This document shows positions 18,161 through 61,440 of a DNA stretch of 64,000 nt, in pieces (positions within the stretch are counted from its first letter, which is position 1; every line of letters starts with the position of its first letter). The notes below the pieces were generated by a model that was given only the letters and a program-made list of their open reading frames with translations, did not search any database and was not told the DNA's origin. The DNA comes from Chiloscyllium plagiosum (lineage: Eukaryota). The stretch is taken from contig NC_057740.1 in assembly GCF_004010195.1 (NCBI RefSeq), positions 33,850,793-33,914,792 on the forward strand, in the 5' to 3' direction. Both the position numbers and the translations under genes were made by a program.

Positions 18161-18816
18161 TGCTTCCAACTTGGACAGAGAGAGCAGCATGAATCAATGC
18201 TACGTCCGCCATCAAAAGGGAAGGCCAGTAGTGCCTCGGATAAGTCAATGGCCTATTGTGCTCCACAAGGCCACCATCTTCTCCCTGCTACCTCAGACTC
18301 AAAAGGCCATTCACTCATGCTAACTTTGTCATTGCACAAAACATCTCATCACGGGTAATAGCATCACCCATCACATGCAAAATGGCCCCTAAAGGGCTCA
18401 CACCTTTACAACAACTAACTTCCTTCCGCTGTTCCTGTTCACTCACTGGGGACACCTCACCACCTCTTGGGTTTATATATGTTCACTAACTGTAATCTAC
18501 TCAATTCTTCTCGTTCTCTCATTGCAGGAAGAAAATGGTCCACAACCAGACTGAGAGGTCCAAGACTGGAGGGGAGGCGGCAGCCTTCAGGTTCCTTCCT
18601 CCCAATGAGGATAAGATGATTGTGTTGGTTGGGAGATCAAAACTGCTCATGTGTTAAAGGGCAGACACCAATGGGCAACTAACCCAGTCAGCTCCTTTGT
18701 GTTGTGCTCCTTTCTGATTACCAGCGATGCTAACTCACTCTTCTGCATAAGCTTTTATCCATTTTCTCCAAATAACTTCCTTTCCTGTTTTAAGCAGGCA
18801 CTTGTGACATCTGGAG

Positions 18817-19003
18817 CTGAAAAATGTGTTGCTGGAAAAGCGCAGCCGGTCAGGCAGCATCCAAGGAGCAGGAATCTGAAGAAGGGCTAATGCCTGAAAC
18901 GTCGATTCTACTGCTCCTTGGGTACTGCCTGACCTGCTGCGCTTTTCCAGCAACACATTTTTCAGCTCTGATCTCCAGCATCTGCAGTCCTCACTTTCTC
19001 CTT
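18817..19003 (+). mobile_element. Fold-back Penelope-like insertion with hammerhead core in the loop
   Basis: ~60-bp inverted arms around CTGAAGA-A-GGGC-TAAT-GCCT-GAAA-CGTC (18876-18903); TSD CTTG(T/C)GACATCT(G/A)GAG at 18801-18816 and 19004-19019. Confidence 0.85.
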
Positions 19004-20341
19004 CTTGCGACATCTAGAGATTCTCCACTGGGAAGAGGCTACAGTCTGAACCCCTCAGTGACAGCTTAACCTCTCAGACAGAAGCTTGTCAACCATCAAT
19101 CAGCTCAGAGACTTGAGTGGGTCCTTTATCTAGATTAGACTTGGGACAAAATCTGATGAACACATACTTCTCTGCAGTGAGTGTAGGAAGAAACACCCGA
19201 GGTCTTTGACACTTAGCTCCATGCAGAAGACCTGTCCCTGTTCTAAGTCATAAGTGATGTGCTTTACTTGCAGCAATAGGCACAGGAACATCAGGCTGGT
19301 GTGCCATATGTATTTGGTAAGCCGGATGATTGATAGAGGAGTCCTTCAAAGGTCTCACTATGATGGTCGTTCTGGCATACAAACGCTTAGCTGCCTCTAT
19401 GGACAGGGACTTTTAAAAATTCATTAATGGGATTAGGGTGTCGCTGGTTCAACAAGCATTTATTGCCCATCCCTAATTGCACATTGCTATGGGTCTGGAG
19501 TTACATGTATGCCAAACCAATTAAGGAAGGCAGTTTCCTTTCCTAAGGACATTCGTGAACCAGACGAGTTTTTCCCGGCAATCACCAATCGATATGTGGT
19601 CATCATTAGACTCTTATTTCCATACTTTAAAATTGAATTCAAATATCGCATCCACCATGGAGGGGATTGAACCTGGGTCTCTGGATTAACAATCCAGTCA
19701 TATTACCACTAGGTTGTTGTCTCACTGGCAGTTGCCTTGGAGGCTCAGGGCTTTTGACAGGCTCAGTGGCTGCTATACCCACTCCATCACCTTAGCCATG
19801 GGTCCTAGCATTGCCATCAAGGTGAGGATGCAAGGGATCTTGATCTCACTTTGGGTGACCTTTCCTCTCAAGAAGACAGGGCATTGCCAGTGTGCTCGCC
19901 CAGAAGGATGAGTAACACAGAAATACCCCAGCAATAGTTTCTCAGGAAACTTCAGAAGTGCTTTGCCACCCCGTATGCCCCTCAACCGCTCCCTTCCCTC
20001 TGATCCCAAAGCCAACAAGTGTTTAAGCTGAGGAGGGTGAGACTGCCTCTAGACAGCAGGCAACGAATGTACTTGTGCCCTCTAGTTCAAAAGGCACGAG
20101 GAAAACACTGCCTAGGACTTCCAAATCAACTACCAAGCAAGCTCCCTACATTTGTAGATGTTAAACCTGCATGAAGAACAGTGAGAGTCAGAAGAAGAAG
20201 AAAACATACTGACGGCATTAGGGGCATGGGTACTACATTATTGTGCACAAGCCATCAGTTTTGTCAATACATTTCCACTTACTTTGTTACAATGTCTGTT
20301 GTAGGACCTGGTTAGGTCAGATTCATGTAAGAGATGAAATT

Positions 20342-20707
20342 TTTACAGAATATTGAATGGCCTGAACAGAGTAGATGTTGGGAAGATGTTTCCATTGGTA
20401 GGAGAGACTAGGACCCAAGGGCACAGCCTTAGAGTAAAGGGAAGACCTTTTAGAATGGACATATGGAGAGAGCCTCTCAGCCAGAGAGTGGGGAATCTAT
20501 GGAATTCATTACCAGCGAAGGCTATTGAGGCCAGGCCATTAAGTGTATTTAAAACTGAGATAGATAGGTTGTTGATTGTCAAGTGGATCAAGGGTTACAA
20601 GGAGAAAGTTGGAGAATGGGGTTGGGAAACTTATCAACCATGATTGAATGGCAGAGGAGACTCGATGGGTGAATGGCCTAATTTCTGCTCCTATGTCTTA
20701 TGGTCTT
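20342..20707 (+). mobile_element. CR1 LINE 3' end
   Basis: ORF 20353-20643 'MFPLVGETRTQGHSLRV..SQRVGNLWNSLP..FKTEIDRLL'; tail TATGTCTTATGGTCTTA. Confidence 0.9.
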
Positions 20708-21814
20708 AAAAGGTAAGTGAAGCTGTGACTTTGACAGCCACCAGGAAGAGACTGACGTCCAGTCCTTGGAAGCACAAGAACTTATCCAGCAGCAAATTTA
20801 CTTCTGAAATATTGATTTGGGGCATACTCAATCTTCTGCAGCAATGTCCTGCTTTTTTCAGATAACTACAGTGATGTCTATAAACCCTAGTTCTCAATAT
20901 TTCTTTGTGTCTCTTTGGTGAAACTTGCCCTGCTGCTCTTCCCTCTGGAGGCTGTGTGGCAGCTGCTGTGGTTTTCTGTTCTTGCTGGGCTTTCATTTTC
21001 CTGTTCATTCTCAGTAGAAGCAAGGCCCCAATGTTAGCAGGTATTCTCTGGGGAAGGTTAGATGTCATGTAGCAATATTGAAGGGACATCAGAGCTCTCA
21101 CATCTGCGATAATCATGAAGATTCTCAGGGACATTCATTGTCAAGCCTTGATTTGGAACTCTGAGATATGTGACCTTACAAAATGCATGGTGAACAACCA
21201 AAGTGTCTACGTTTATGTTCCATTGCAAATAGACTTCTACCAATAAGCCACCACGAAATGCACACATCACTGTCACCCACCCATTTCCTTTCCCACACCA
21301 AAGCTCATCACACATCACAGTGAATCTCTGGATTGATACGGCAGAGAAGGAGGCCATTTGGCCCATCAGGCCTGCACTGACTGCTCTCAAGTATCATTAC
21401 CAGTCTCCTGCTTTTTCCCCATAATTTCTATCCAATACAGCCTCTCAGTGAAGCCTTGAATGCTTCATTTGAACCTGCCTTGACCACACTTGTCCTTGGA
21501 GAGTTACTTTTGTGAGTGACGATATGGCAGCTGCTGTGTATTGTCTTCCAAACTTGCTACAGATTGTCATTGTGAATTAGGAACATCAGGTTCAGTCTTT
21601 AAGTTCCTTCTCTGGGCTCTGATGGTACATTGCTAGTGTCCCTGCCTCTGGGCCTGAGGCTGAGTTTGTGCCTGAGTTGGGCTGAGGCCAAGCACTGTGA
21701 TATTGTGAGGCTGGTACTTTGCCGAGGTCAAGTTTCACGAAGGGTGCAGGAAGTATTTTCCCATTGCCCGTAGAGAAGCAGTAATTCCACATGTAAAGAG
21801 AAGCTAAATGGTTG

Positions 21815-22531
21815 TGTTACGACACAGGGTGAACCCCTCTGCTAATTCATACAAGCAACACAGAAAAAATTCAGACTGTATTATAAGCTGCTAAAATTTG
21901 AGAGGCAAAGAACTATCCCAAAAGTCACTATTTAAAGGAAAAAGGAATAGCTTTATTTTTAAAAGTCTAACAGAGAATACTAACTAGCAACTATTTATAA
22001 CTTCTTTCTCTTAAGCCTATCTTTTACCTCCCCCTCGACAGTATTGTTCAGATAAAAATCCCGATTATGATTGACAAAAGAAAATCACATTTCAAAACCA
22101 GCTTTGCCCAGTTTCCACTGTAGATATTTCCCCATAGATTTTCTCTAGGTCGGTTTCAGTGCTTTTTCTGTAAACTTCTTCTCCAGATAGGTACCTCCCA
22201 GAGAGCTCTTACCAGCAGCCTACATCTGTTGGTCTTTTGTCAGTTCTCTTTGCTGCTCTGGGTAACTGTTCAAAATGTCTGATATCTATACCCCAAAACA
22301 TCGGACCATTTCATTGGTTTAGTTGTCAAAACATTATTTTTTCAAATTTGATTGGATTTTGTTAACTTGGGACATAATTTAAACTGATTGGCCAAATTCA
22401 AACTTGTTTTTGCATCCTGGCAACACAGCTCTTAGCTTGTTATTTCAATCCACTGTTAGTTTTAGATTTGCCAGCACTCTCTGTGCTTCTCTAAGTCCTT
22501 GCTAGCTTTTTAATTCCCTTTCTTCATAACA
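21815..22531 (-). mobile_element. Solo LTR (related to the Gmr1-like element)
   Basis: TGTTA...TAACA termini, 4-bp TSD GTTG (21811-14, 22532-35); shares TTTAAACTGATTGG and GCTAGCTTTT blocks with the 4964/7389 LTRs. Confidence 0.85.
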
Positions 22532-23560
22532 GTTGGCATGTCCATTCTATGAGCTACAATGGACATTGATGGAGGGGTCAGCCTTGTTCTTGCTTTGTTT
22601 AACTGGTTATGTTTCTCAATTGTGAAAGATTGGAACTGCAATTTTCAATCTGACGAGATCAATGAGATGCAAATATGGAAAGAAGGCGAGATTATGAACA
22701 GGCCATCTAAGGTATGAGGACTGAATCAAGAAAGTACTTTTTCAGAGTGAGAGTCTGATATTTAGATAATTTCTCACATGATTAAGCTCTATCACTCACC
22801 ATCATTCTCGGCGCGTCAGAGGAGAAAATTCTATCCTGAGTTTGGATTGTCCAAATGTCTGGCACATTTTTTATACTGGCAGCCTGGGAAGACTCTGGGG
22901 TAAATTTTCTGTTGGTTTTAATGGAATTTTCAATTTGCACTAGATGGATGTGAGAGTTCTTTATGCCACAAGATATAAACTTTACCCCTGAATTCCATTC
23001 TTTGGGATGAATTTTAACTTAAATTCAAAGGGGAAAATACCAGGTTTCCCTGAGTTGCTTATTCTGTCTATCTGTTCTTGTTTCCATTTTTTTCCAAATA
23101 TTACAGTAGTTTGCCATTGCTTTCTGCAGAATGGCTGACCAGGAAACTTCCCCATTCTTACCACCTGCTATCAAGTGTACTGTATTGAAAGGATACATAG
23201 GCTAAGAATCCACTTGTTTGGCCATCTTACAAATACACATTCCATAATCAATAAGTTCTGCTGTGGGATTCAAAGCCTGTAGCTTCTGACCCAGAGGAAT
23301 AAAACATCATCACTGTGTAAAAAAGCTTTCCTGAATTGCTAATTACATACACCTTTTTCCAAATCATAGTTCTGCAAGCAGTGCTGTAAGAAATGGAATA
23401 ATTCATAGAACATCTTGAGTGTCTTGTAAATCCTGTAATGGAGGATACCACACATTTTAGTGTCAGCAAGAACCCTTTTTGGAGTCACTTTGATTAGACA
23501 CGGGAAATGCCAATAAAATATTGAAATAAGCAAGAGATGATAGGGTGATGTTTTATATAG

Positions 23561-23773
23561 GCGAAAGTGAGGACTGTAGATGCTGGAGATCAGAATCAAG
23601 ATTAGTGTGGTGCTGGAAAAGCATAACAGGTCAGGCAGCATCAGAGGAGCAGGAAAATCGATGTTTCGGACAGGAGCCCTGATGAAGGGCTTTTGCCTGA
23701 AATGTCGATTTTACTGCTCCTTGGATGCTGCCTGACCTGCTGTGCTTTTCCAGCACCACTCTAATCTTGGTTC
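23561..23773. mobile_element. Fold-back Penelope-like insertion with hammerhead core
   Basis: ~85-bp inverted arms; CTGATGA-A-GGGC-TTTT-GCCT-GAAA-TGTC at 23679-23706; TSD TGATGTTTTA(T/C)AT(A/G)G at 23546-23560 and 23774-23788. Confidence 0.85.
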
Positions 23774-24065
23774 TGATGTTTTACATGGCATTCTGGATTA
23801 TTGGTTGATACTCATCATTAGGAACATCTTTACAACAGGCATTTAAGCTTTGCTGTGTGATGTAGAAAGAGCTATGAAAATGTAATGAGATACCACTGGG
23901 TATCAATGGCCATTTTGCATTGTGTTCTTCTCTAGAGATTCCAATAATTTTCTTTACTGGGATGTTAATTGCCCTTTAAATGTATACATGTGTCCATCTT
24001 GTATAGAATTTGTTAGGGAAGTCCTGAGCCCAGGCAAAGATTCTGGTGGGAGCTCATCCAGTTTC

Positions 24066-24246
24066 GAGAGTGTAGTGCTAGAAAAGCACAGCAGGTCAGG
24101 CAGCATCCGAAGAACAGGAGAATCAATGTTTCAGGCATATGAAACGTCGATTCTCCTGCCCCTCGGATGCTGCCTGACCTGCTGAGCTTTTCCAGCACCA
24201 CACTATTGACTCTGATCTCCAGCATCTGCAGTCCTCACTTTCTCCT
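24066..24246. mobile_element. Fold-back Penelope-like insertion (hammerhead core truncated at apex)
   Basis: Inverted arms meeting at TTTCAGGCATATGAAACG; TSD AGCTCAT(T)CCAGTTTC at 24051-24065 and 24247-24262. Confidence 0.85.
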
Positions 24247-24902
24247 AGCTCATTCCAGTTTCACTGGCAAAACATGCCTTGTCTCACAATGCAGAGAAAA
24301 TTTCCAACTGTCTCCAAAATTTTGTTATTTTTTAAAACAATTGGGCCTGACCGCTTTGGTTCTCCTAGTTTTGTTATCATTTTTCAAGTGCAGACATCCA
24401 TGCCTTGAAAATTATGCCAAGTAGATTATCTATCATACCCCTTCAAATGTATCAAGTTTTATTTATTGTATTAATTTGTTTGAGACACGTTCTGAAGCAC
24501 ACACCATGCTCAAAAACAAGTAACATCCAGCTATAATTAACTTGTTCTTTGTATCTTCACTAGAATTAATTGCCATGTCACTAGGTCTCAGAATTATGGA
24601 AATTCAATTTAGAATGAAATCCTGCAAAACATTATAACAGCTCATTATTTATATAGCATTCTCCATATTAATTTTACTCTGGATCCAAATTAAGTTTATT
24701 TTTATCAGGTTAAAATTTGCGAGTGAGTGTCCATAATAAGCTTGATGTTTAATAAAATTATGAAACTGACCATAACAATACAGTTTTAAACAGTGATGGA
24801 AACATATTTTGTCTGAAATATGCTGTCATTTGTATATGAACATTTGTGAATTTGCAATGCCAGCATACTTCAGTGGTATTAACTTCAATATGGATAATCT
24901 AT

Positions 24903-25563
24903 TGTGACCATGCTGTGCCTTTATGAGATGTGTTTTGTCCTGGTTTCTTTAAAAGAGAAATCGGGGGTGGGGGGGGGGTGTTTGTGTGGGAGACCAGGTA
25001 CCGAGCAGTCTATGAGAAGATAAACAACTTGTGAACTTCTGATGCCTTATATGTTTTTTCAAAGTAGGAACATTGGAGGCAGCCTGAGTGGGTGTGGGTA
25101 GTCTCCCACACACAGATCCAGGGATTTTAATTTTTTTCAGCAGAAACTGCTGTTAGGATCTTGAAGAAGTGGAAGATATTTTTCCCTCTTTTGATTACAG
25201 CCAAAAGTTGGGATTTCTCTACCTAGGCTGCAGGATTGCATGCGAGACAAATCTGTTTCCTGAATTTGTCTTTTGCCAAGGGTATGTTTTTGGAATGTTA
25301 CTGCACTGGAACAGTTAATTAGTAATAGTTACTGTATGTATTATTCTGTTAAGTTTTCTAATAGAGTTAAGTTATCCCAAGTTCTTCTTTCTTTTATTGT
25401 ATTTTAACTATAATGTTGAATATGTTGTAGTTTGCTTAATGTTGAGTAGTTTGACCAATTGAATTACATTGGAAACATAGTGCCTGACATTTACATTTAA
25501 AATAAGAAAAAGTTAGGATCTAGGGGTATCTTGAGGGCGGGGGGTCTGATCTGGTCCATAACA
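24903..25563 (+). mobile_element. Probable solo LTR of a further family; related ends at 28758(-) and 63486(-)
   Basis: Starts TGTGACC..CCTTTA..GAG, ends CTGGTCCATAACA; reverse complement TGTTATGGACCAGACCA starts at 28758 and 63486; TSD not clear. Confidence 0.6.
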
Positions 25564-25762
25564 ATAGGGAATTTTAGGCAAATGAATGAGATATTTTTAC
25601 ATTTATTTAGTAGTTCGTCATTTAAATTAATGCAAATACAATAGAATAATTAGTAATATTTGTTTAAAGTCACAATCCAATCATGAAAATACAAACTATT
25701 TTTTTATTCCCCAAAATTTGGAAGATCCAGAAATTCAAATAAACCAATTTTAATTCTCAGTA

Positions 25763-25981
25763 CAGTCTGTTTTGCTATAACGTGGTAGTTCCGTTCTTGC
25801 GCAATCCTGTGTTATAATAAAATTGGGTAACAGCAGCACCATTTACACTAATGGGGCCGGAATCACATTATACCCAATGCATGCTTTAAAGGTTTGTGCT
25901 TTAGAGACAGTGTCCTTAATTCATTAATCATGTTGTAGTGAATTTGCATTAACGAAATGCACGTTATAGCAGAACTACCTG
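25763..25981. mobile_element. Tc1/mariner(Tigger)-type MITE
   Basis: TA flanks (25761-62, 25982-83); TIRs CAGTCTGTTTTGCTATAACGTG / CACGTTATAGCAGAACTACCTG (18 of 22 match). Confidence 0.8.
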
Positions 25982-26437
25982 TAATACAAATGGTTAATTT
26001 TATACATTCTATACCCATTAATTCATCAAATGTTTCTTTGAAAGTCCAGTTAAAGATGAAAGTCACCAACAGTTTTGTTAAATGCTTTGATTATACATTT
26101 TTATCTTTGTCTAGAGATATTATACAACTTTTTTTTAGTCATACCTACCTAAATAAATACAATGATGTAATTTATCAAGATTGTCGAAGGTCTTATCACA
26201 ATTTCTGGGGCTTGAGTAGGTCAACAATTATAAAGCACAAGATAATACTGAATCAATTGGACCTTTTTCTGATCGTGACCTCAGTATTTCTGTCTGCTTC
26301 TACCCCAACTTTACACTTTTGCTGCTGGAACTCTCACCGCCTCTTCTGACTAGCCTCCCAGCTCAAAACTCTTGGTCCTACCAAATACTGTTGACTCTCA
26401 TCAAATCCTCTGTGCTTGCTGATCTACATTGACTATG

Positions 26438-26730
26438 TTAAAAATCACATAAAACCAGGTTATAGTCCAATAGGTTTATTTGGAAGTAGTAGCTTTTGAA
26501 GCGCTGCTCTTTCATCAGGTAGCTAGTAGAGTAGGATCACAAAACACAGGATTTATAGCACAAGATCATAGTGTCATGCAACTGATACAATATATTGAAC
26601 AAACCTAGATTGCTGTTAAGTCTATCATCTTTTAGAATGGGTTGCAAGTTTTGATTCATTAATATGTAAATCCAGAACTTCTTTCAAGTCACATTCTCAA
26701 GATACCTTAAGGTTTTATAAAAAAACCCGG
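26438..26730 (-). mobile_element. Penelope-like terminal repeat, family C (decayed hammerhead)
   Basis: Minus strand ACCTGATGA-A-AGAGC-AGC-GCTTC-AAAA-GCTA (26488-26521) followed by AATAAACCTATTGGACTATAACCTGGT. Confidence 0.65.
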
Positions 26731-27184
26731 TGATTTCAACAGTTTGCAGCCAACTCAAACTCAATAAATATCAGCAGGTAAGCAGTGGTTTCCTGATCCC
26801 TCACTGGGTAAGGCCTGGATGGATGCAGCCATATACAGATAATGAAAACCCTTCATTATAACTGCCGTACGATATTTATACCACTTTGTAATTTCATGTG
26901 GAATTTGTTCCTCGAAATCCTTCCACTATTTGCTGATCTATACACCAAGCAATGTAATTGCACCCTTCTTATTCATTGTCTGTAACCCAATCAATTTTGT
27001 CCTTGAACCTTCTGAAATGAAAAGCAGACAGATGTGAAATGGAAATTGGATCTGGCCTATTGCCTGTTCACCATCAAACAGCTTCATAATATGGTGGTCT
27101 GTGCCATGTTGATCAGCTCTGCATTAAACCATCTGCTGTGGCTCAGGAGGCCCACTCTGACAAGGAGATTCTGTTACTGCAATT

Positions 27185-27911
27185 TGTTATGACATGGGAT
27201 AAACTCCTCTGCTAATTTAAACCAGCTACACAGAAAAGATTCACCTCGTGCTGTAAGCTGTTAAAATTCGAGAGGCAAAGACTTATCCCAGAGGTCACTA
27301 TTTCAAGTAAAAACTAACAACTTTATTCTTTAAGTCCAATGGAGAATATTAAAGCAACAACCATTTACAACTCCTTTCTCTTAAACCTATCCTTTACCTC
27401 CCACTCTACCATATAAAAAAATCTCAATTAAGATTTACAAAAAAAATCAACTTTCAAAACCAGTCAGCTGTCGAATCTTCTCTTTGTATCTTCCTCTGCA
27501 GATTTTCCTCTGTCGTCTTTTGGACGTTCTGCTGCACAACCTTCTTATAGCCAGGTACCTTTCAGAAAGCTGTTCTTCTGGCAGTCTGTACTTGTTGGTG
27601 GCTTGGTAGTTCTCCCTCAACTGTTCAAAAATGCCCAGTATTATACCCCAAATCATCAGATCATTGAATTAGTTTTAATATTATCAAAATACTAAATTCA
27701 AACTTGATTTGAGTTTTGTATCTTGGGGTATAATTTAAACTGATTGGCTGAATTTGAATTTGTTTTTGTCTCATGGTAACCCAGCTGCTGCTAGCTGTTT
27801 CAACCAAATGTTACATTGCTAACTTGTTCAGAATACTTTGCACTGTATCAGGCAGGCCTTGCTAGCATTTCAACACTCTGAAAGGTACAGGATCTCTACA
27901 TTTTCATTACA
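27185..27911 (-). mobile_element. Solo LTR of the Gmr1-like family
   Basis: TGTTA...TTACA termini, TSD AATT (27181-84, 27912-15); 27690-27900 is the reverse complement of the LTR at 4964-5230. Confidence 0.9.
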
Positions 27912-31560: not shown

Positions 31561-31692
31561 AGGCAAAAGCGAGGACTGCAGATGCCGGAAACCAGAGTTT
31601 AGATCAGAGTGGTGCTGGAAAAGCACAACAGGTCAGGCAGCATCCGAAGAGCAGGTAAATTGACATTTCAGGCAAAAGCCCTTCATCAGGAA
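31561..31692 (-). mobile_element. Penelope-like terminal repeat, family A, with hammerhead core
   Basis: Minus strand TTCCTGATGA-A-GGGC-TTTT-GCCT-GAAA-TGTC. Confidence 0.8.
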
Positions 31693-33235: not shown

Positions 33236-33281
33236 AAGATAGTCATACAATTATACAGCAGATTGCTAGTGAAGCATAGGT

Positions 33282-35417: not shown

Positions 35418-36457
35418 TTCCCAAGATGGTGATGGAATAGGATGCTTCAGCTGGAGCTGGACCACTCTGCTCATTCTTCTTGTTTTTCTTCTCTTTTACT
35501 CACTTCTTTGTTTTGTTTTATTCTTCTCTCCTGGCCTCCGGTCAGCTCCTGGCCTCAAGTGTGACTCCAGGACTCCGGTTCAAGTCTTGACCTCCAGTTT
35601 GACTCCAGGCCCTCCCAGCCTGGTATAGTGGCCTCCTAGCCTGGTATAGTGGTCTCCCAGCCTGGTATAGCGGTCTCCCAGCCTGGTATAGCGGCCTCCT
35701 AGCCTGGTATAGTGGCCTCCTAGCCTGGTATAGCGGCCTCCTAGCCTGGTATAGCGGCCTCCTAGCCTGGTATAGCGGCCTCCCAGCCTGGTATAGCGGC
35801 CTCCTAGCCTGGTATAGCGGCCTCCTAGCCTGGTATAGTGGCCTCCTAGCCTGGTATAGCGGTCTCCCAGCCTGGTATAGTGGTCTCCCAGCCTGGTATA
35901 GTGGTCTCCCAGCCTGGTATAGTGTTCTCCCAGCCTGGTATAGCGGTCTCCCAGCCTGGTATAGCGGTCTCCCAGCCTGGTATAGCGGTCTCCTAGCCTG
36001 GTATAGCGGTCTCCCAGCCTGGTATAGTGGTCTCCCAGCCTGGTATAGCAGCCTCCTAGCCTGGTATAGCGGTCTCCCAGCCTGGTATAGTGGTCTCCCA
36101 GCCTGGTTTAGTGGTCTCCCAGCCTGGTATAGCGGTCTCCCAGCCTGGTATAGCGGTCTCCCAGCCTGATATAGCGGCCTTCCAGCCTGGTATAGCAGCC
36201 TCCTAGCCTGGTATAGCGGCCTCCTAGCCTGGTATAGCAGCCTCCCAGCCTGGTATAGTGGCTTCCCAGCCTGGAAGACCACTCTTCTGAACATTTTATT
36301 TCTCTATTTTCAGAGATCTTGTAACTGAAGAAGATGTACCTGGGTACCTTTGTATCTAAGATGTGCTGTAAGTAGCAATGTATAAACTTTTTACTGTACT
36401 CATTTGAGTACATATGACAATAAAGTTATTCAATTCAGTTCAAATCAATTCAATTCA
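35418..36457 (+). mobile_element. Non-autonomous retroposon enclosing the minisatellite
   Basis: 5' CCCAAGATGG start; 3' TACTGTACTCATTTGAGTACATATGACAATAAA+(TTCAA)n tail resembles the Rex1-type tail at 28975-29030. Confidence 0.5.
35619..36269. repeat. 21-bp minisatellite, 31 units, consensus CCTGGTATAGYGGYCTCCYAG
   Basis: Units in exact 21-nt phase from 35619 to 36249 with no net indel; produces the (RPLYQAG/R)n ORF. Confidence 0.95.
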
Positions 36458-37275: not shown

Positions 37276-37765
37276 AGGAACTTCTGATGATAAGCTGAGA
37301 GAGGTAGGATGTTAATGAAAAATATAAATGTTCAATAATGGGTTGATAATTATTAAACTCAATGTCGAGTTTTGAAGGTGTAAGAGGCCCAGGCAGAAAA
37401 AGAGGGTTGTTCCCCCAACTTGCATTGAGCCTTGCTGGAGCACTGCAGTAAGAGAGAGAAACGGAGAGGCGAGAAAGGAACTTCTGATGATAAGCTGAGA
37501 GAGGTAGGATGTTAATGAAAAATATAAATGTTCAATAATGGGTTGATAATTATTAAACTCAATGTCGAGTTTTGAAGGTGTAAGAGGCCCAGGCAGAAAA
37601 AGAGGGTTGTTCCCCCAACTTGCATTGAGCCTTGCTGGAGCACTGCAGTAAACCAGAGAAAGAAATGTTGGGATGGAAACAGAGTAGCATAGTTCTCCTC
37701 TGGAAAAGTAACCCCAAGCTTCCAGTTGCCTTCAGTCCAAACACCATTGTGTTCCCATGCCAATA
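37276..37765 (-). mobile_element. Penelope-like GIY-YIG endonuclease C-terminal remnant (partly duplicated)
   Basis: 'SGLLQCSSKAQCKLGEQ' (ORF 37559-37747) then LNIEFNN-like CTCGACATTGAGTTTAATAAT. Confidence 0.6.
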
Positions 37766-44320: not shown

Positions 44321-44372
44321 TCTGAGGTCAAGGCATACAAGGGCCATGTGCTGGAAAATGGGATTAGTATAG

Positions 44373-47569: not shown

Positions 47570-48360
47570 AGTCAGAAAGTTGTAAGTTCAAGGCACACTC
47601 CAGGTACTTGTCTGTAGTAAAGATTGGCACTTTTGTATCACATTTACAAGGTGTGGACTGTCAAAGGTGCTGCCTTATTGCTAAGCCCATATATTTCCCA
47701 CTCACATCAACATAAAAGATCCTAAGTTACTAGCAAGTTTTGAGAAGATTTGTAGCTCAGGTTGAGGTTCTGAATGTAGGTTTGTTCGATGAGCTGGAAG
47801 GTTCATTTTCAGATGTTTCATCACCATACTAGGTAACATCATCGGTGAGCCTCCAGATAATTCCTAGAAGCATGGCATTCTAACAGGAACCCTATCAACA
47901 AACACATTGACTTGAATCCCATTTACCACCTCCTGAGAAAAAGAACAGGAAATGACATCACCAACCCAAGGAAACCTAAACGTACAAATAGAAAGCAGGC
48001 CATGCCACCATTGCTTCATCCGGACGTTCACCGATGATGTTACCTAGTATGGTGACGAAACATCTGAAAACGAACCTTCCAGCTCAGCGAGCAAACCTGC
48101 ATCCAGATCCTAAGGTAATTCCCAAAAAAGGTCAACAGAACTCTTCTTGGTGTTCTGGTTAACTTTTAACCTTGATCAATTGTACTAATACAGGTTAATT
48201 AGTCATTATTACATTGGTGGTCTTGTGGGATCGTGCTGTGCAGATTTTTGATTGCTCTGCTTTTTAAAATGAAAAAAAGACAGTGATCACACTTCAAAAG
48301 TACTTCACTGATTTTAAAGTGCTTTCCGATGTCCAGAGGTCTAGAAATGCAAATTGTTTT
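47570..48360 (+). mobile_element. DeuSINE/AmnSINE1-like SINE interrupted by a Penelope-like insertion
   Basis: TGTGGGATCGTGCTGTGC..CAGTGATCACACTTCAAAAGTACTTCACTG..AAAGTGCTTT..AAATGCAA. Confidence 0.55.
47727..48104 (+). mobile_element. Penelope-like 3' end (family D) with inverted pLTR, two hammerhead cores and GIY-YIG tail
   Basis: 'FLEAWHSNRNPINKHIDLNPIYHLLRKR' (~47861-47945); arms ~47770-47857 vs ~48018-48106 inverted; TSD AGATCCTAAG at 47717-26 and 48105-14. Confidence 0.85.
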
Positions 48361-52362: not shown

Positions 52363-52792
52363 AGAATCATAGAATCCCTACAGTGTGGAAGCAGGCCCTT
52401 CGGCCCAGCAAGTCCATACTGACCCTCTGAAGAGTAACCCACCCAGACCCATTCCCCTACCCTATTACTCTACATTTACCCGTGACTAATGCATCTAACC
52501 GACACATCGCTGAATACTACGAGCAACTCAGCATGGCCAATTGACCTAACCTGCTCATCTTTGGATTGTAGGAGGAAACTGAAGCACCCACAGGAAACCC
52601 ACAAAGGCACAGGAAGAATGTGCCAACTTCACAAAGACAATTGCCTGAGGCTGGAATGGAACATGGGTCCCTTGCACTGTGAGGCAGCAGTGCTAACCAC
52701 TGAACCACTGTGCTCCCACCATTCGCCCCACTACCTCCCCCCCCCCACCCCNNNNNNNNNNNNNNNNNNNNNCCCAACCACCGTGCTGCCCC
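52363..52792 (-). mobile_element. HE1 V-SINE with a 21-N gap (52752-52772) in a C-rich head duplication
   Basis: Standard HE1 motifs; ends ACCACCGTGCTGCCCC. Confidence 0.9.
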
Positions 52793-53114
52793 ATCTTAGC
52801 TGCTGCAGTCGGCAGCTGATGTTCAATGATATTTTTATGGGACTATTTTGGATAGTGATAGGTTCCTTTCCTGAAGGCAATAGTGAACTAATCTAATGAT
52901 AAAGTAACAGCCATGTGGTGACTTTTACTCATACCAACTGTGTACTTCAAATCTCAAATTACCATGGTCGTAACAAAACTGCCATCCAGATTATTATGCC
53001 AGCTTTGTGGTTTACTTGTCCAGTAAAATACGTCTCTACGATACCTTATCTGATTTTAAATCGTAAGTATGTTTCAAATCAGTTTTCAAGATAACAGACA
53101 GACAGTAAAATATA

Positions 53115-53285
53115 TTCAGAAATTGGTGGAAAAGTTCAGCAGGTGTGGCAGCATCCATGGAGGAAAGCAGAGTTAATGTTTCAGGTCCAGTGACCCTTCT
53201 TCAGAACCAAAAACTCTGCTGGGTTTTTCCAGCAATTTCTGATTTTGTGTCTGGTTTCCAATATTTGCAATCTTTGTTTTTTTTA
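53115..53285 (-). mobile_element. Penelope-like terminal repeat, family B, with hammerhead core
   Basis: Minus strand GTT-CTGAAGA-A-GGGTC-ACTG-GACCT-GAAA-CATT-AAC (53172-53207). Confidence 0.75.
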
Positions 53286-53379
53286 AGCAAACATATTCAC
53301 TGTTTTGACTTGTATTTCCATCAACAGGATTGTGGCATTAACTATTGTTACTTTAGCCATTTAGTCACATAATTCCGTG

Positions 53380-53750
53380 AATCACATAGAATCCTAGAGT
53401 GTGGAATTAGGCTATTCAACTCATCAAGTCGACACTAACCTTACAAAGTGCACCTTACCCAGATCCAGCTCCCTACCCTATCCCTGTAAACCGGCACCTA
53501 ACATGGTGAATCCACCTAACCTACACATCCCTGTACACTATGTACAGTTTAGCATGGCTAATCTCCCTAACCTGCACATTTTTGGATTGAGAGACAAAAC
53601 CAGAGCATCCAGAGGAAACTTACACGGGGAGACTGTGCAAATTCCACAGACAGTTACCTGAGGCTGGAACTGAGCCCAGGTTCCTGGTCTGTGAGGTAGC
53701 AGTGCTAACCACTGAGCCACAATGCTGCCCATAAAGCTACTGTGCTGCCA
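53380..53750 (-). mobile_element. HE1 V-SINE
   Basis: CCTAACCTGCACATTTTTGGA..GCAGTGCTAACCACTGAGCCAC. Confidence 0.85.
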
Positions 53751-56700
53751 ATTGATCCACCATGTCATCCATAATGTTTGCAGAGGGCTAGAATATATTT
53801 CACTTACTTTTCAATAACCAGAGAACTGCCCCACTGCCCTTGCTTATAAACCTCACCTTTTATCCCCACGATCATGACCTTACAAGTTCCCCTCTCCATA
53901 TCCAACACACTCTCCTATTTCTTGGTCAGTCATCCATTAGGAATCTGGGTGTATTGTATTGGCCAAGACTTTCTGTTTGACCTTCTCAAGAATACCAATT
54001 CAAAGGAAAAAACATTTACACTGCTTGAGCGGAGTGCACTGAATGATGAACAAGAGAGGCTGATAGGTAAAGGCATTGTCACTGAAAATGCACCATTAAT
54101 GCTGATTGACAGTTAACTGCCAGAATTTGTTTAAATTTTAAACTGGACAAGTTGACATAGATTGGTCAAGGCATTGCCCCAAGAGATAATCCAGCAAATG
54201 GATGTCATCCATTCTGTTGAGTTGAAATAGGTTGACAACTAATTTAGAATTGTCGTTTGGGCTCGCAATGTGACATACATTTCTGTATTGGAAGCTACAT
54301 GTCTTAATATAGAATACACAGAGCCCTTTCCTCTGTAAACAGAAAAAACACGTATGTGTACAGCATTGGAGTCATGTTTTTAGTAATGCTTTGATATTAT
54401 TGGACTGAGGAGTCATTTATTTTGTTTTGTTCATAAGTTTAAAGAGGAGAGAAAAATACTAAGATGTTATTTAACTCATGGCTTTCTTAGTTCATGGTCC
54501 TCTTTCTTTGATCAGTTTTGCAAAATAATGCCTTCCTACTTTCTTTTTAGCCAAGTGCTAGAGCTGCCAGTGTTTGATCAGCCAGCATCAGTTGGTGAGT
54601 AATCCTTTTCTCAATCAAGTTCCCAATCTCCATGACTTGCCTGTTGGTGCCTGACTGCCATAAGATCCAGAGTTTCCCCCTGCTAATCTCTCCCATTTTT
54701 GGATTTAGTGATTCTGCACTATGTGGTCATATCATCTGCTGAATGCTGTTCTTTATTGTTCTGGTCCTACACAATTATATATAATATACAAGTTACGTTT
54801 ACAGGGCACTATAACGATGCTAAAGGACAGATTATTTAATGCTCATTTTAATTGAGGTAACTCCTTCATCAAAATAGGAAAAGAAGGAATTTCAACAAGC
54901 AGTAAGTAGAATTGAGCATAATCTTAAGGGCCTGGAGTTTGTAATTTAGAAAAAAACAACACTAATTCTCTGGATGAAATTATTGATTCCTTTTGGCTTT
55001 CTCTTGCAGTGCAGATCAAAACGTTGAGTTAAAAAACTGCACTGCACTCTGTCAGTAAATGCATAGTTTGCATGTTAGGTTAGTTGTTAGACCTAACAAA
55101 CTTGTGTAATAATGGTAATAAAATAATTCCATGTCCAATTATTATATATTCTGTGAACAAACTAATTTATGTCTGATGCCAAATGATGGTACTGCAGAAG
55201 GTATAGTATCATTGATTAGAGTGTGTTATCATCTGACACATTGGGCTCACAGTGTAGTTATGTTCTTCATGACAGAGTCAGAACAATAACTTAAAGCAGC
55301 TGAGTTCAACTGACAGATCCTCTCAGCTTTCACACCTGAATTTGGGATTGAAGACAGGTGTCCACTATTCTCAGAATTGCAACCTTTCTTTTGACTATAG
55401 CTCTCTTTTCTGGTGGTGGGTGCTACCTGGCTTATTTATTTTTATTCATTTACAGGATGCGGGCATCACTGGTTAGGCCAGCAATTATTTTCTATCACTA
55501 ACAGCCGAGAGAACGGTTAAGAGTCGACCACATTGCAGTGGATCTGAAGTCACGTGTGGGCCAGACAGGGTAAAAATGGCAGATTACTTTCCCTAAAGAA
55601 AATTAGTGGACCAAATGCGTTTTTCCTCATAATCAACACTGGTTTCATGATTATCATTATACTCTAAATTCCAGATCTTCAATTGAATCAAAATTCCACC
55701 ATCTGCCATCAGGATTCAAACTTAGGTCTCCAGATCATTATCAGAGACTCTGGATTAATAGCCCAGCAATAATACTACTAAACCATTGCCTTGCCGTTAT
55801 CAAGGAAGATAGAAGTGGTGCATGTTGTTTTATGAATAACTTCGTTGAAAATAACCCAGGATTTTGGTCAAAGTTGTTCTTGAAAAATGTTTAGCCATTG
55901 TTACGACCAGGTGAGGAGGGATGATCGGCTCCCCTCTTTTTTTTTTAACCCCCTTTTGATCAAGTAAATATTCTGTTAGTGAAAGGGATGACAGCTGTAT
56001 TCATTATTAAACTAAAAAAAAGGAAATTGCAACATTTTACAGTCACACAACATGGGTAACAAGGGGAAAGTGTCTGTACAGATTGGAAGGTATAGGCAGT
56101 TGATATTTACACCTTTTAAAGTCCTTGAGCTATGAGAGTGAAAGCTGAGTCTCAATGGGCTAGCTGTTGTCTTGTTCCCTCAGGAGGGGCAAAGCTTAGA
56201 GATACCTGAGATTTCTCAGTAAATGATTTCTTGTTTATCACTTTGTGTTCCCAGCAAAAAAAAAGTTATTTAATTTGTGATATATATTCACTCTTGTTGT
56301 AATTTGTGAGTGTATAAAGAATGGGTAATTCTCAATGCCGGTTGTATGTAAAAAGAAGTGCCACTATGCGTTTGATATGTTGAAGCCAAATTAATATATT
56401 CATGAGTGGAAGTTTCACATGTGCAATCTCATTCGCCAAAAGAGGGAAAGCTCAATATTTTTGATGAGGTTACACCAACTCAGAATACAAGGGAAGGTGA
56501 CAGGGCACCTGAATGAATCAGCATGGAACTATTTGAAAGCCTTTCAGTGCAAGGTATGGAGAAATTGATTTGTAATGTAGTTGCAGAATAGATATGCCAG
56601 GTGAGATAAGATTAGTTTGAACAAGAGAAAGAACTTCATAGTTTTCCATAGTATTCCTCCATATTTGAATTAAAAACAGATGGAAGAAAGAAAGAAATGG

Positions 56701-57361
56701 AAGTTCTAGTTGCCAACATTTTCTTTACTTTAAGATGACTCAGAGACTACTGCTTTGAGTTTACCTGTTACATTTGTAATCTTACTTCTATTAAAGTAAT
56801 TGACCATACAGAAAAGCAAACCAGTTTGTGCAACGTACAAGGTACTGTGTGTACAATGTCCTAGTTGAATTGCAAACAAAGCAATTCCAAAATTCAAACT
56901 GAAAAACTGAATTAATACTTTGGGACATTCCAAAGCACTTCACTATCAGTGGATAATTTTGAAGTGTTGTCACATTTGTTGCAGAGACAATTTGTGCCAC
57001 AAGCAGCAGGTTGATCAATAGCTCATTTATTTTGGTTAAGGAATTAATGATGACCATCAAGCTAGTCGACCTCCAATGCCATTGGGTCTTTCACATCAAG
57101 CTTATCAGGGTAAATCTAAGCCAACTATCACCTCAGAAGCCTGTCTCACTTGTCAGCAAAATAATAGGAGTCATCAGTAGTGCTATCAAGGTGCATACTC
57201 ATTAACAACCTGCTCATGATGCTTGGTTTGGGTTCCGCCAGCTCCAAAATGAAAGCGAAATACTGCAGACACTGGAAATCCAAAACAAAAATATGAAACG
57301 CTGGAAACATTTATTAACCCAAAGGATTGGGCAGAATTTTGTTATGGCATCAGGTGTCTTG

Positions 57362-58395
57362 CTTAAGACCATAAGACCATAAAAAAATTGGAATAAGTGT
57401 AGGCCATTCAGCCTCTCGCACCTGTTCTGCCATTCAACATGATTATGGCTGATCTGACTTTCCTCATATCCACTTTCCTGGCCTTTTCCCATCACTCTTG
57501 ATTCCCCTACTAATCAAGAATTTAGCGATCTCAGTCTTAAATATATACAAAGACTATGCCCTCACAGCTCTCTGTGGCAAGGAGTTCCAAAGGATTACAA
57601 CCTCTAAGAAAATAAATTCTTCATCCTCTCAGTCTTAAATTGATGCCCCTTTATTCTGAGATTATGCCTTCTGGTCCTACACTCTCCCATGAGGTGAAAC
57701 ATTCTCTTAGCATTTACCCTGTCAAGCCCTTTAAATATCCAAAATATTTCAATGAGATCACCTCTCTTTCTTCTAAACTCCAATGAGTAGAGTCTCTTTG
57801 CTCATAAAACAACCTCTCCATGCCTAGTGATCATCCTATGGACTTTCTCTGAACTGCCTCCGATGAAATGATATCTTTCCTTAAATAAGGGGACCAAAAC
57901 TGTTCAGAGTAGTCCAGATGTGGTCTCATCAGCATCCTGTACAGACACAGTAAGACTTGTCTACACTTATATACAACTTCCTTGAAATAAGGACCAACAT
58001 TCCATTAGCCTTCCTGATAACTTGCTGTGCCCGTGTGCTAGCTTTCTGTGTCTCATGTACAGATCCCTTTGTGTTGCAGCTTTCTGCAGTCTTTCTAAGT
58101 AATATTTAAATAATAAAGGTTTAGAGGGATATGTGCCAAACGCTGGCAAAAGGGACTGGCTTAGTTTAGGAAACTTGGTCAGCAGGAATGAGTTTGGCTG
58201 AGGACCTGTTTCTTCTGTATACCCTTATGACTCTATTCTGTTCTTTTGTTGTCCCTTCCAAAATGAACAACTTTGCAATTTCCCACATTATACTCTATTA
58301 TGCTCCAACTTGTTGCCCACTTCCTTAACCTATCAATATCTCTGTAAATTGTTTGTGTTCCTCTCAAATATGTGCCTTGCCAATTATTTTAGTGT
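57362..58395 (-). mobile_element. CR1 3' part with nested sense CR1 tail (58105-58235 +)
   Basis: TAAGACCATAAGACCATA tail; same subfamily as 11620-13330. Confidence 0.85.
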
Positions 58396-58429
58396 CAGGA
58401 GACTTGGACTGCCTCTTTTTAAAAAGATC

Positions 58430-59215
58430 TATAAGACCATAAGACATAGGAGTGGAAGTAAGGCCATTCGGCCCATCGAGTCCACTCTGCCATTCAATCA
58501 TGGCTGATGGGCGTTTCAACTCCACTTACCCTCATTCTCCCCGTAGCCCTTAATTCCTTGTGATATCAAGAATTTATCAATCTCTGCCTTGAAGACATTT
58601 AGCGTCCCGGCCTCCACTGCACTCTGCGGCAATGACTTCCAAAGGCCCACCACTCTCTGGCTGAAGAAATGTCTCCGCATTTCTGTTCTGAATTGACCCC
58701 CTCTAATTCTAAGGCTGTGTCCACGGGTCCTAGTCTCCTCGCCTAACGGAAACAATTTCCTAGCATCCACCCTTTCCAAGCCATTTATTACCTTGTAAGT
58801 TTCTATTAGATCTCCCCTTAATCTTCTAAACCCCAATGAATACAATCCCAGGATCATCAGCCGTTCCTCGTACGTTAGACCTACCATTCCAGGGACCATC
58901 CGTGTGAATCTCCTCTGACACGCTCCAGTGCCAGCATGTCCTTCCTGAGGTGTGGGGACCAAAACTGGACACAGTACTCCAAATGGAGCCTAACCAGAGC
59001 TTTATAAAGTCTCAGTAGCACAACGGTGCTTTTATATTCCAACCCTCTTGAGATAAGTGACAACATTGCATTCGCTTTCTTAATCACGGATTCAATCTGC
59101 ATGTTTACCTTTAGAGAATCCTCGACTAGCACTCCCAGATCCCTTTGTACTTTGGCTTTACGAATTTTCTCACCGTTTAGAAAGTAGTCCATGCTTGTAT
59201 TCTTTTTCCCAAAGT
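58430..59215 (-). mobile_element. Young 5'-truncated CR1
   Basis: ORFs 58881-59192 and 58516-58962 give an almost uninterrupted ORF2 C-terminus ('QRDLGVLV..LVRLHLEYCVQFWSPHLRKD','RRHFFSQRVVGLWKSLP'); CpGs retained. Confidence 0.93.
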
Positions 59216-59296
59216 GACCAAGTTACAAGCCAATCAGTACGTGGTGAAGTCACAGATGGTTTTCCCCTGAAATCAAAATACCAAGTGTGATGTCTT

Positions 59297-59426
59297 AGGC
59301 ATGTGAGGACTGCAGATGCTGGAGATGAGAGTCTAGATTAGAGTGGTGCTGTAAAAGCACAGCAGGTCAGACAGCATCCGAGGAGCAGGAAAATCGACAT
59401 TTTGGACGAAAGCCCTTCATCAGGAA
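59297..59426 (-). mobile_element. Penelope-like terminal repeat, family A, single arm
   Basis: Minus strand ATTCCTGATGAAGGGC-TTTC-GTCC-AAAATGTC; perfect 11-bp TSD TGTGATGTCTT at 59286-96 and 59427-37. Confidence 0.85.
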
Positions 59427-59454
59427 TGTGATGTCTTGCCTACTGATAATCCCT

Positions 59455-59645
59455 GCATGGTTAGCTGGATGGCTTGTGATATAGAGTGACACCAACAGCA
59501 TGGATTCAATTCCTGCACTGGCTGATGTCACCAAGAATGTCTTGCCTTCTCAACCTCTCTTTGCCTGAGGGATGGTGATCCTCAGGTTAAACTCAATCTC
59601 TGTAATGCGAGATGAGCCCTATGGTCCTCTAGGTCTCTGGTGACG
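59455..59645 (+). mobile_element. Old tRNA-derived SINE (unclassified)
   Basis: B-box-like GGATTCAATTCC; CTGAGGGATGGTGATCCTCAGG hairpin. Confidence 0.45.
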
Positions 59646-60761
59646 ATTATTTATCCAAGCACTTCTAGCAAATCAGTGGTGGCAGTTCCTGTGCACAATA
59701 GTGACACTGGAGTGACCATGACTACTAGTGGAAGGACAGGCTCAGGGTTTCAGAATGATAGAACGACCCAGGCAATAGGTAGTTTATGTGTGTGGTTGGG
59801 TGGAGTTCACAGAGTGGGGCTTCACAAATAAGGGCAGGGGCAGGACAGAGTAGCCCTTAGTGGGGTCCATTTCCTGATATTTGTGCCTGGCACTGAGTGT
59901 CTTTGATCAAGAGACACCACCACTCTGATCCCTCCCTCCATGCTGGGCCGAATGTGACAAACTGGCCACACAGTTACAGCAGTTGTGCAGACCATGCATG
60001 GCTGCTGCTGGGTTAATTCAGCAGCGTGAGATAAGGCCTATAAGAAGTTATTAATTGGCCAATTAAGGACCTCAATTGCAACAGAATGGAAGATCGACCT
60101 TTTGCTTTTCCCAGCCAGAACATAATTGTGAGTTCAGGCATGACCCCACCTTGTCTAATTAAATGCCCTTCCCACCTACAAGCTTGGCATCAATAACAGC
60201 AGGAGATGCTAATGGCATTGAATGTCAAATGAAGGTAGTTATGTTCTCTTATTGGAGTTGGCCATTGCCTGATACATGTCTATAATTTATAGTAGTATTT
60301 AGGGTAGTAATTATCATTTTTCATTCCAAGTCTGGATGTTGTCCAAGTCTGGCTGCACCGAGCATGGATTTTATTTTAATCTTGAGAACTATAAATGGAG
60401 CTGAACTGTATGCAATCATTGGTGAACAGCTCAAATTCTGACCTGTAGGATCTGCCAGATCTCTTCCCACAGTTGATGCCAGACCTGCTGAATTTTTTTA
60501 TATACAGTTCCAATTGTCATTTCAGCTTTGATCCAAACACAGACACAGAATGAACTCTGGGGCTGAGGTGAGAATGATTCCCTCCCTTACATCCAGGCAA
60601 TATTTCACTGAGTTTGGCAACAAGGGGCCTTAATGAAAGTAAAATTAATGATGATTGAGCAAAGGTTAATATGCAAATTGGGGCCATTTCAGCCCAGAAC
60701 TTTGCTGTTTTCCCTTTGATTAACGTTCTAGGGTTGACAATTATTACTACTACATCAGTCT

Positions 60762-61440
60762 TCCTTGCAGGTTATAAATTGGGCTGTTCACTGACTACAA
60801 CTCCATTTACAGTTCTTAAGAAACAGTCCATGCTCCTGTGCAGCAGTCCTGGACAACATCTAGGAGAAAGTGAGGACTGCAGATGCTGGAGATCAGAATA
60901 GAGAGTATGGTGCTGGAAAAGCACAGCAGGTCAGGCAGCCTCCGAGGAACAAGAGAATCAACATTTTGGCCATAAGCCTTTTCCTGTTTCATTCCTGATG
61001 AAGGGCCTATGCTTGAAACATTGATTCTCCTCCTCCTTGGATGCTGCCCAACTTGCTGTGCTTTTCCAGCACCATGCTCTCAACTCTGGACAACATCTAG
61101 GCTTAGAATGAAAAACAATATGTGCTATCCATGCTAGGCAAGTGTCAGGCAATGGCCAACTCTGAAAAGAGAACATAACTACCTTCATTTGACATTCAAA
61201 TGCCATTATCGTCATGGTGTCCCACATTATCATAATCCTAGAAGTTGCTATTGACCAGAAACTGACTAGAACCAACCAGATAAACATAATGCTTGATGAG
61301 GCTTGATTTTTTACAGCAACTGGCTAACTGGACTCTCATAGCTTCTACATCTCTCAAAGACACGTTAGTGTGATTGCATTGTCTCCGTTTACCTGGATGT
61401 CTGCAGTTCCAACATGAAGAGAGCTCAGTACTCTCCAGAT
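60762..61440 (+). mobile_element. Old CR1-group LINE RT fragment (inverted partner at 60210-60450)
   Basis: CTGGACAACATCTAGGCTT..CAAGTGTCAGGCAATG (KCQAM)..ATTGACCAGAAACTG (IDQKL). Confidence 0.65.
60865..61085. mobile_element. Fold-back Penelope-like insertion with hammerhead core
   Basis: ATTC-CTGATGA-A-GGGC-CTAT-GCTT-GAAA-CATT (60991-61022); ~75-bp inverted arms; perfect 16-bp TSD CTGGACAACATCTAGG at 60849-64 and 61086-101. Confidence 0.9.

Follow-up and report, generated by a model that had tools for sequence, protein, structure and literature searches.

Short fold-back insertions abundant in the genome of the shark Chiloscyllium plagiosum are ends of Penelope-like elements

Introduction

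Which kind of mobile element leaves behind short palindromes flanked by direct repeats of variable length is the question raised by a 64,000-nt stretch of the Chiloscyllium plagiosum genome (assembly GCF_004010195.1, 3.56 Gb; NC_057740.1, positions 33,850,793–33,914,792 of the forward strand), hereafter the window, in whose own coordinates all positions are given. A preliminary description of the window had listed five fold-back units, each consisting of two inverted arms, and one single-arm unit, and had proposed that every palindrome was made during integration from a ribozyme-processed mini-RNA, the units together forming a retro-mobilised, ribozyme-defined non-autonomous system that merely resembles MITEs (miniature inverted-repeat transposable elements). 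All six units are present at the positions given, each with its own direct repeats of 10–16 bp, the target site duplications (TSDs). We show here that they are the hammerhead-bearing ends, or pseudo-long terminal repeats (pLTRs), of autonomous Penelope-like elements of this genome that encode reverse transcriptase (RT) and a GIY-YIG endonuclease, and we argue that they were probably inserted through priming at both target ends on RNA that the ribozyme had not cleaved.

Results

Partner elements of the fold-backs

Family A comprises four of the fold-backs and the single arm, and family B the fold-back at 47727. Among 30 loci fetched for the arm of unit 59297, several run upstream into a C-rich 3′ untranslated region (UTR) and on into frames for GIY-YIG and RT. 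A 94-aa piece of the RT yielded 36,355 first-look candidates in the genome, 150 of which were scored. Ten early candidates with long frames were dropped, their length being inflated by N runs. One locus, L147, contains a 725-aa open frame with an RVT_1 match at residues 253–437 (E 2.8e-6; 27.6 bits, under the cut-off of 29.6) and, towards the C terminus, a GIY-YIG domain at residues 671–704 (23.8 bits, over the cut-off of 22.6 when cut out). The N-terminal part of the open reading frame (ORF) was seen only in copies other than L147, no single complete ORF was seen, and a PDB sequence search with the 725-aa frame returned no matches. At a second locus, L240, the ATG of the ORF lies 38 nt after the tail of the arm, and the 141-nt tail-to-ORF junction is identical in 40 of the 40 scored places (L240 and 39 others), so that the arm is the pLTR in a partial tandem, and one of the subfamilies has a very recent origin. 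All five subfamily classes of family A also have body-linked copies. The Penelope-like origin advanced in the preliminary description is thus borne out by ends shared with RT + GIY-YIG copies, and an autonomous partner with the same terminus exists (L147, L240).

In P0001 of family A, a CX4CxxC motif directly precedes the GIY-YIG domain; as a zinc-finger linker of the form CX2-5CxxC is described between RT and endonuclease for the Neptune type (PMC8557442), the motif suggests that family A is of this type. The GIY-YIG frame reached by the arms of family B, a candidate member of the Penelope/Poseidon-type clade, is a different one, within which the long arm of unit 47727 itself begins; the GIY-YIG match is weak (E 0.057) and no linker motif was seen in the upstream frame. 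A third family was encountered as well (regions C2, C12, C16, C22 and C31), with a hammerhead-like end that resembles the one of family B (~72%); a TATA-like box precedes its motif by ~45 nt. An apparent sharp stop of family B arms at q−2 (numbering below) was rejected, those arms belonging to this third family with its different upstream sequence.

The youngest family A subfamily also forms head-to-tail mini-arrays on several chromosomes (L253, L254, L257, L261, L264, L270, L280 and L283), with units of ~250–310 nt extending from q−8 to −90 through the hammerhead and the tail to ~q225–275, and 18 places on many chromosomes share one mini-array junction without a difference over 71 nt. The mini-arrays are retrozyme-like and, since one of them lies ~2 kb 3′ of an ORF match, may represent the end of an autonomous master.

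Hammerhead motif

An Rfam scan of the window gave no matches at the gathering score; the hammerhead was recognised in the window arms by its motif pattern, comprising the CUGANGA box, helix II, the GAAA box, the NUH triplet and helix I, the last being only 2–4 bp long as judged by eye. This pattern fits the minimal type I hammerhead described for Penelope-like pLTRs (PMC4209133), with which it has in common the CUGANGA box, an extra base ahead of helix II, palindromic positions 15.2–16.2 and a mostly solitary occurrence, whereas helix II, read here from the sequence pattern, is short (~4–5 bp in family A). The same source describes pairs of hammerhead motifs on opposite strands, 100–700 bp apart, in Schistosoma. 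Below, positions along an arm are given as q, with zero at C3 of the CUGA box and predicted cleavage between q27 and q28. At 18860–18880, at L299–L301 and L304–L306, and in a census unit of region C31 (405830), exactly the hammerhead core is missing between two short repeats; the gaps span q−2 to q33 or q4 to q31, as though skipping or deletion had removed the motif in its folded state.

Abundance and target site duplications

The units were placed in a genomic context through a census of six regions on six chromosomes, one of them surrounding the window, with 1,415,781 non-N bases in total (1.42 Mb). BLAST recovered 274 family A arms, 221 of which passed an alignment score of 70; one artefact row was removed, leaving 220 arms for the calculation of stop rates. 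Pairing at a score cut-off of 60 produced 52 fold-backs and 135 single arms, the latter still including at least five fold-backs with very short inverted arms. One fold-back duplicates its neighbour and was set aside, giving 51 independent units. Depending on the region, there are 20–53 fold-backs per Mb, a density that extrapolates to ~130,000 genome-wide, with a Poisson range (98,000–171,000) that leaves regional spread aside. The units measure 90–2475 bp, and 41 of the 51 fall between 90 and 240 bp, without any element body.

TSDs with a score of at least 9 flank 41 of the 52 fold-backs and 18 of the 120 testable single arms, as against 2 of 600 mismatched flank pairs used as controls. At a score of at least 10, 34 of 50 TSDs are 13–16 bp long (range 10–23), lengths that include the 1–3 letters common to target and element end. 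Such sharing is frequent, as counted without a null comparison, and target bias is otherwise weak: a strong target consensus was looked for in the census and not found, and host targets display no ATT bias.

Each fold-back joins a tailed and a tail-less arm

The 3′ ends of the arms are bimodal, clustering at ~q84–98 and at q123–127, and the stretch by which the longer class exceeds the shorter, the tail, has a median length of 34 nt. Tailed and tail-less arms are combined in 49 of the 52 fold-backs; the other three are unclear, and neither two tailed nor two tail-less arms were ever found together. All five family B fold-backs have the same composition. A tail of 30–40 bp at one end only is a published Penelope-like feature (PMC3846280, PMC8557442), and in Poseidon of Anolis carolinensis (PAc) two RT start sites were reported to bound the tail in vitro (PMC11167929). 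Six tail-less single arms carry their own adjacent TSD, indicating that priming can occur at the position near q90 with no hairpin involved and that this near site is usable alone.

At their 5′ ends, the tail-less arm reaches farther in 28 of 51 units, the tailed arm in 15, and the two are level in 8, so neither can be explained as a simple duplicate of its partner. Both arms belong to the same subfamily in all 37 classifiable units (14 were not classifiable; chance expectation 0.25), and arm identity within units (91.6%) exceeds that with other units of the subfamily (89.9%; 34 units, p = 0.043). The layout recurs, with a TSD, at the kilobase scale (L155, L159), and short inverted arms are found directly on ORF bodies (L166, L176, L177, L183, L235, L236 and L241). 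The notion of a separate non-autonomous system therefore finds no support, given that the five subfamily classes are body-linked, 9 of the 51 units extend past q−20 into the 3′ UTR or ORF, and multi-kilobase arms share the layout of the short ones.

Early stops, at q45 or later, are more numerous among tailed (8/51) than among tail-less arms (2/51). They look as though a far-primed cDNA had halted on a near-primed one, which may be the case, as may a detection bias for short arms.

Family A arms stop preferentially ahead of the hammerhead core, not at the cut

Self-cleaved RNA would provide a template starting at q28, contrary to the arms seen. Sequence from upstream of the predicted cut is present in 83 of 102 fold-back arms, which extend to q24 or further 5′; at least one arm retains the GAAA box or more upstream sequence in 47 of 51 units, and both arms lie downstream of the cut in only 4. 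Per 100 nt at risk, the 220 arms stop at a rate of 0.70 at q26–30, equal to the background of 0.71 at q10–25, and at 4.07 between q−12 and 9, with a tenfold peak of 7.73 at q−7 to −1; farther upstream the rate returns to 0.82 (q−40 to −13) and 0.76 (q−100 to −41). The peak precedes the predicted cut by ~30 nt and falls on the 5′ strand of helix I, just 5′ of the hammerhead core. Because the centres of the units lie ~30 bases before the cut, the template RNA was probably not ribozyme-cut. Processing into a mini-RNA, as originally proposed, accordingly finds no support in the arms, and of the idea that the ribozyme defines their ends only one part survives: the ends do pile up at one place, which is not the cleavage site.

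Two other accounts of the stops were considered and rejected. Hidden upstream body sequence cannot be the source of the peak, as body was present upstream in 3 of 58 short single arms, and shared upstream sequence turned out to reflect missed inverted arms or duplicated loci. A possible cut-site peak in the first 1.06 Mb (six arms at q27–29) did not rise above the neighbouring rate in the full set, and at least one of its arms carries an internal deletion across the motif.

The two arms of a unit behave jointly at the peak. In the 28 units in which both arms reach q9, both pass it in 5, a single arm passes in 1 and 2, respectively, and neither passes in 20 (Fisher p = 0.0012). Junctions between pLTR and ORF provide a second view of the same region. 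After removal of four loci adjoining N from 40 young ones, 36 remained, of which 11 stop at q−12 to 9, 16 further 3′ and 9 at q−31 to −37; these nine all lie within the head-to-tail mini-arrays, the other 27 stop at or 3′ of q−12, and none of the 36 stops at q26–30.

These data hint that the RNA has its 5′ end at ~q−5, shortly ahead of the hammerhead; this would cause both arms to pass or fail together and ORF-linked 5′ pLTRs to stop there. A folding stall, or joining through microhomology, would also produce a peak, this being the first structured stretch after the unstructured C-rich UTR; some copies can fold a hairpin centred near q−1, which ranks first among the folds of only part of the subfamily copies. 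An RNA 5′ end at the peak appears somewhat the likelier cause, the chance of a folding stall being a little under even. Endonuclease cutting at the ATT that immediately precedes the CUGA box ranks low as a candidate cause, because host targets have no ATT bias. In a single-cell polyA RNA set aligned to 23200–24500, whose reads come from many copies and are uninformative on RNA 5′ ends, no pile-up of ends was observed. For PAc, mainly uncleaved RNA was reported to be used in vitro, with no RNA reads ending at the cut in the published data (PMC11167929). A short template may begin just 5′ of the hammerhead core, or an RNA may have its 5′ end there.

Probable two-ended priming and its alternatives

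We consider it probable that the fold-backs are pLTR ends inserted via two-ended target-primed reverse transcription on uncleaved Penelope-like RNA. The element protein would nick the two target strands ~13–16 bp apart, leaving two 3′ ends; one would prime at the far start (~q127) and give rise to the tailed arm, and the other at the near site (~q90), yielding the tail-less arm in the opposite orientation, both probably copied from a single RNA bound to a protein dimer. In most cases both cDNAs would end immediately 5′ of the hammerhead core; a head-to-head join, bridged by a short stretch of common sequence or by a few filler bases, would follow, with gap filling producing the TSD. From the geometry, two staggered 3′ ends that each prime should place the antisense arm on the left and the sense arm on the right, as is observed. 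PAc is reported to nick and extend both strands, is predicted to form a dimer and needs ~55–60 nt beyond the far start (PMC11167929); short units ending at q127 would be without such a downstream protein-binding region and are probably dead on arrival.

A more specific version, which we put forward tentatively and regard as rather less likely than its negation, is that family A fold-backs are templated by a separate short pLTR transcript, or by an mRNA 5′ end, starting at hammerhead helix I and set by the transcription start, not by self-cleavage, so that the ~130,000 fold-backs would record one dimer-on-single-RNA reaction priming once per start site. If true, such a reaction would account in a single step for the inverted pLTR as well as the one-sided tail.

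Several observations weigh against two-ended priming as outlined. Most single arms (all but the 18 of 120) lack a TSD. Two of the eight nearest neighbours of unit 18817 (L302 and L303) consist of a tailed inverted arm and a sense arm extending 70–130 nt beyond the tail, and the other six form two trios with identical apex strings. The coupling test comprises only 28 units, multi-kilobase arms, too, can have a short partner that stops at the peak (L166, L235, L236), and arm limits come from local alignment, accurate to ~3 nt and poorer in a few cases. Family B has no stop peak (1 of 15 arms at q−12 to 9), so the stop step is not general. Finally, no intermediate of the reaction has been seen, the order of steps and the dimer being inferred.

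The most serious competitor is self-priming, in which a single cDNA folds back near the hammerhead, copies itself and is resolved at the tail boundary, the palindrome later losing part of its centre. Palindromic inverted junctions have been read in this way (PMC3846280) and the tail has been ascribed to endonuclease resolution (PMC8557442). Such a snap-back followed by lopsided loss of the centre would also give arms of one subfamily with coupled lengths, which is a further point against two-ended priming, and the stop peak coincides with the q−1 hairpin possible in some folds. However, in the 28 units with a longer tail-less arm, that arm contains sequence, up to ~300–1100 nt, absent from the tailed one; tail-less single arms with a TSD exist; both ends are RT start sites in vitro (PMC11167929); and the hairpin is the preferred fold in only a part of the copies. 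We hold self-priming to be unlikely, though far from negligible.

Considerably less probable is that some fold-backs were copied whole from transcribed master stubs, in the manner of a family of short interspersed nuclear elements (SINEs). Non-autonomous Penelope-like families are described elsewhere (PMC8557442, PMC9977147), and the two trios (3 + 3 of the 8 neighbours) could be taken as their descendants, but among the 51 independent units, which were sampled at random, no two share both arm limits or an apex string (apex strings were compared by eye in the 28 closest pairs). The trios themselves have apex strings one or two bases away from that of unit 18817, and may have converged via the 5-nt repeat flanking the hammerhead, or constitute a small master lineage; we read them as convergence, because the neighbours were selected as the closest of 3,975 candidates and because the members of one trio are unlike in subfamily letters and in their tail-less ends, a pattern that convergent microhomology joins would produce. 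In addition, every subfamily has body-linked copies, and the stubs would be without the downstream binding region. Together with the variable TSDs, the differing apexes support the view, already taken in the preliminary description, that each palindrome was formed de novo at integration.

Template production by hammerhead cleavage, with the short 3′ product being reverse transcribed, is scarcely credible: family A apexes do lie in or beside the motif and 7 of the 220 arms stop at q26–30, but most arms continue upstream of the cut, the stop rate there is that of the background, no junction copy stops there, and hammerhead mutants of PAc are reported to insert normally (PMC11167929). An origin as DNA-transposon MITEs, suggested by the short, palindromic and very abundant nature of the units, can be dismissed almost entirely, as it had been before, in view of TSDs of no fixed length (10–23 bp), arms unequal by the tail, differing centres, the broad range of unit lengths and continuity with RT-coding copies.

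Units and other features of the window

The apexes of the four family A fold-backs lie within the hammerhead motif or at its edge, as the preliminary description had it, but none coincides with the cut site, and 7 of their 8 arms retain sequence upstream of it. In unit 18817, TSDs of 12 bp (18801–18812 and 19004–19015, one mismatch) enclose an inverted tail-less arm on the minus strand (18814–18873; q33–92), which has likely lost q−2 to q33 between two 5-nt repeats, and a plus-strand tailed arm (18876–19003; q0–127) that starts at the CUGA box. Unit 23561 has the opposite arrangement, with a minus-strand tailed arm (23559–23680; q7–127) overlapping by 3 nt a plus-strand tail-less arm (23678–23775; q−1 to ~96) that includes the entire hammerhead motif; its 13-bp TSDs are at 23546–23558 and 23774–23786 (one mismatch). 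Unit 24066 comprises an inverted tail-less arm (24066–24139, minus strand; q13 to ~90) and a tailed arm without the CUGA box (24140–24246, plus strand; q19–127), between a left TSD of 15 bp (24051–24065) and a right copy of 16 bp (24247–24262) that is one base longer through a single indel, both read directly. In unit 60865, the tailed arm is again on the minus strand (60865–60981; q6–127) and the tail-less arm on the plus strand (60989–61085; ~q−6 to 93), the latter with the entire motif at 60995; the 16-bp TSDs (60849–60864 and 61086–61101) share some letters with the element end.

The family B unit, 47727, has its apex outside the hammerhead. Its inverted tailed arm (47727–47858, minus strand; q−13 to 111) contains the motif, and its long tail-less arm (47861–48104, plus strand; from ~q−175), with the motif at 48031, extends to the C-terminal end of the endonuclease frame; TSDs of 10 bp lie at 47717–47726 and 48105–48114. 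The single tailed arm of family A at 59297–59426 (minus strand) starts just 5′ of the CUGA box between 11-bp TSDs (59286–59296 and 59427–59437). Four arms were found in addition to those listed previously: a family A tailed arm at 1–178 (plus strand) that extends into the element 3′ UTR and past the window start, single tailed arms of family A without a clear TSD at 17126–17257 (minus strand; older) and 31562–31692 (minus strand), and an older related arm with a hammerhead-like motif at 53122–53204 (minus strand). Alignment of two contig sets, an RNA read set and a contig set guessed to be RNA at 23200–24500 revealed no contig bridging either of the two sites and no empty site, reads of other copies having swamped the stretch.

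Other repeats of the window are of different kinds. A larger inverted pair at 16381–16904 consists of two opposed copies of an abundant short repeat, which resembles a shark SINE and may be one, and a pair at 12131–12834 derives from two fragments of a common repeat resembling long interspersed nuclear elements, one nested inside the other. A tandem array with a 63-bp period occupies 35611–36274, and a 186-bp direct repeat (98%) lies beside an N run at 37276–37661. About 190 bp before unit 18817, the stretch 18528–18610 resembles, by eye, a short coding exon between a pyrimidine tract with an AG end and a GT, in which case the unit would be intronic.

Discussion

The short units are an ordinary, known Penelope-like insertion architecture in great numbers. 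An inverted copy with a tail has been published (PMC3846280, PMC8557442, PMC11167929), and as described for canonical endonuclease-positive insertions (PMC3846280, PMC8557442) the head-to-head inverted copy, the tail at one end, the TSD and the partial tandem, in which the ORF starts behind the tail, are all shared; the tail is likewise similar in length, with a median of 34 nt here and 31 bp in Pen2a_Av (PMC3846280, PMC8557442). The shark units differ in that the commonest fold-back product is bodiless and, by extrapolation, immensely numerous, and in their longer TSDs, mostly of 13–16 bp against 8–10 bp in the rotifer examples (PMC3846280, PMC8557442).

With PAc, as reported (PMC11167929), the shark elements probably share two RT starts bounding the tail, cutting and extension of both strands, and dispensability of hammerhead cleavage. 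In contrast, the PAc ORF starts inside the hammerhead and that of family A 38 nt after the tail, and PAc prefers ATT and primes without homology (PMC11167929), unlike the weak target bias and frequent 1–3-nt sharing, counted without a null comparison, seen here. Non-LTR retrozymes (PMC7229834; bioRxiv 10.64898/2026.07.22.740005) are similarly described as short, non-coding, hammerhead-bearing and pLTR-related, but are arranged head to tail, whereas the window units are head to head or single, with at most one complete sense motif per strand.

Both target ends also prime cDNA in L1 twin priming, which leaves an inversion with a TSD. Inversion, TSD and, probably, two-ended priming are common to the two, but the arms of an L1 inversion copy different parts of the RNA, and here both arms copy the same stretch of at least 90 nt. 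A literature search, which covered few subscription papers and did not extend to Repbase or Dfam, found no report on short shark fold-backs or on Penelope-like twin priming, which is no proof of absence. What is added here are the arm-coupling test and the junction-locus test, both of them small.

The origin of inverted pLTRs and one-sided tails has been called unresolved in accounts of these elements (PMC8557442, PMC11167929). The 49/52 pairing of tailed with tail-less arms, the coupled arm lengths, and a stop peak 30 nt before the cut with none at the cut itself set testable limits on the mechanism, and the census agrees with the in vitro result that the template is uncleaved RNA. In repeat annotation the fold-backs may be misfiled under MITEs, and within transcripts of this shark ~130,000 short inverted repeats could give rise to double-stranded RNA.

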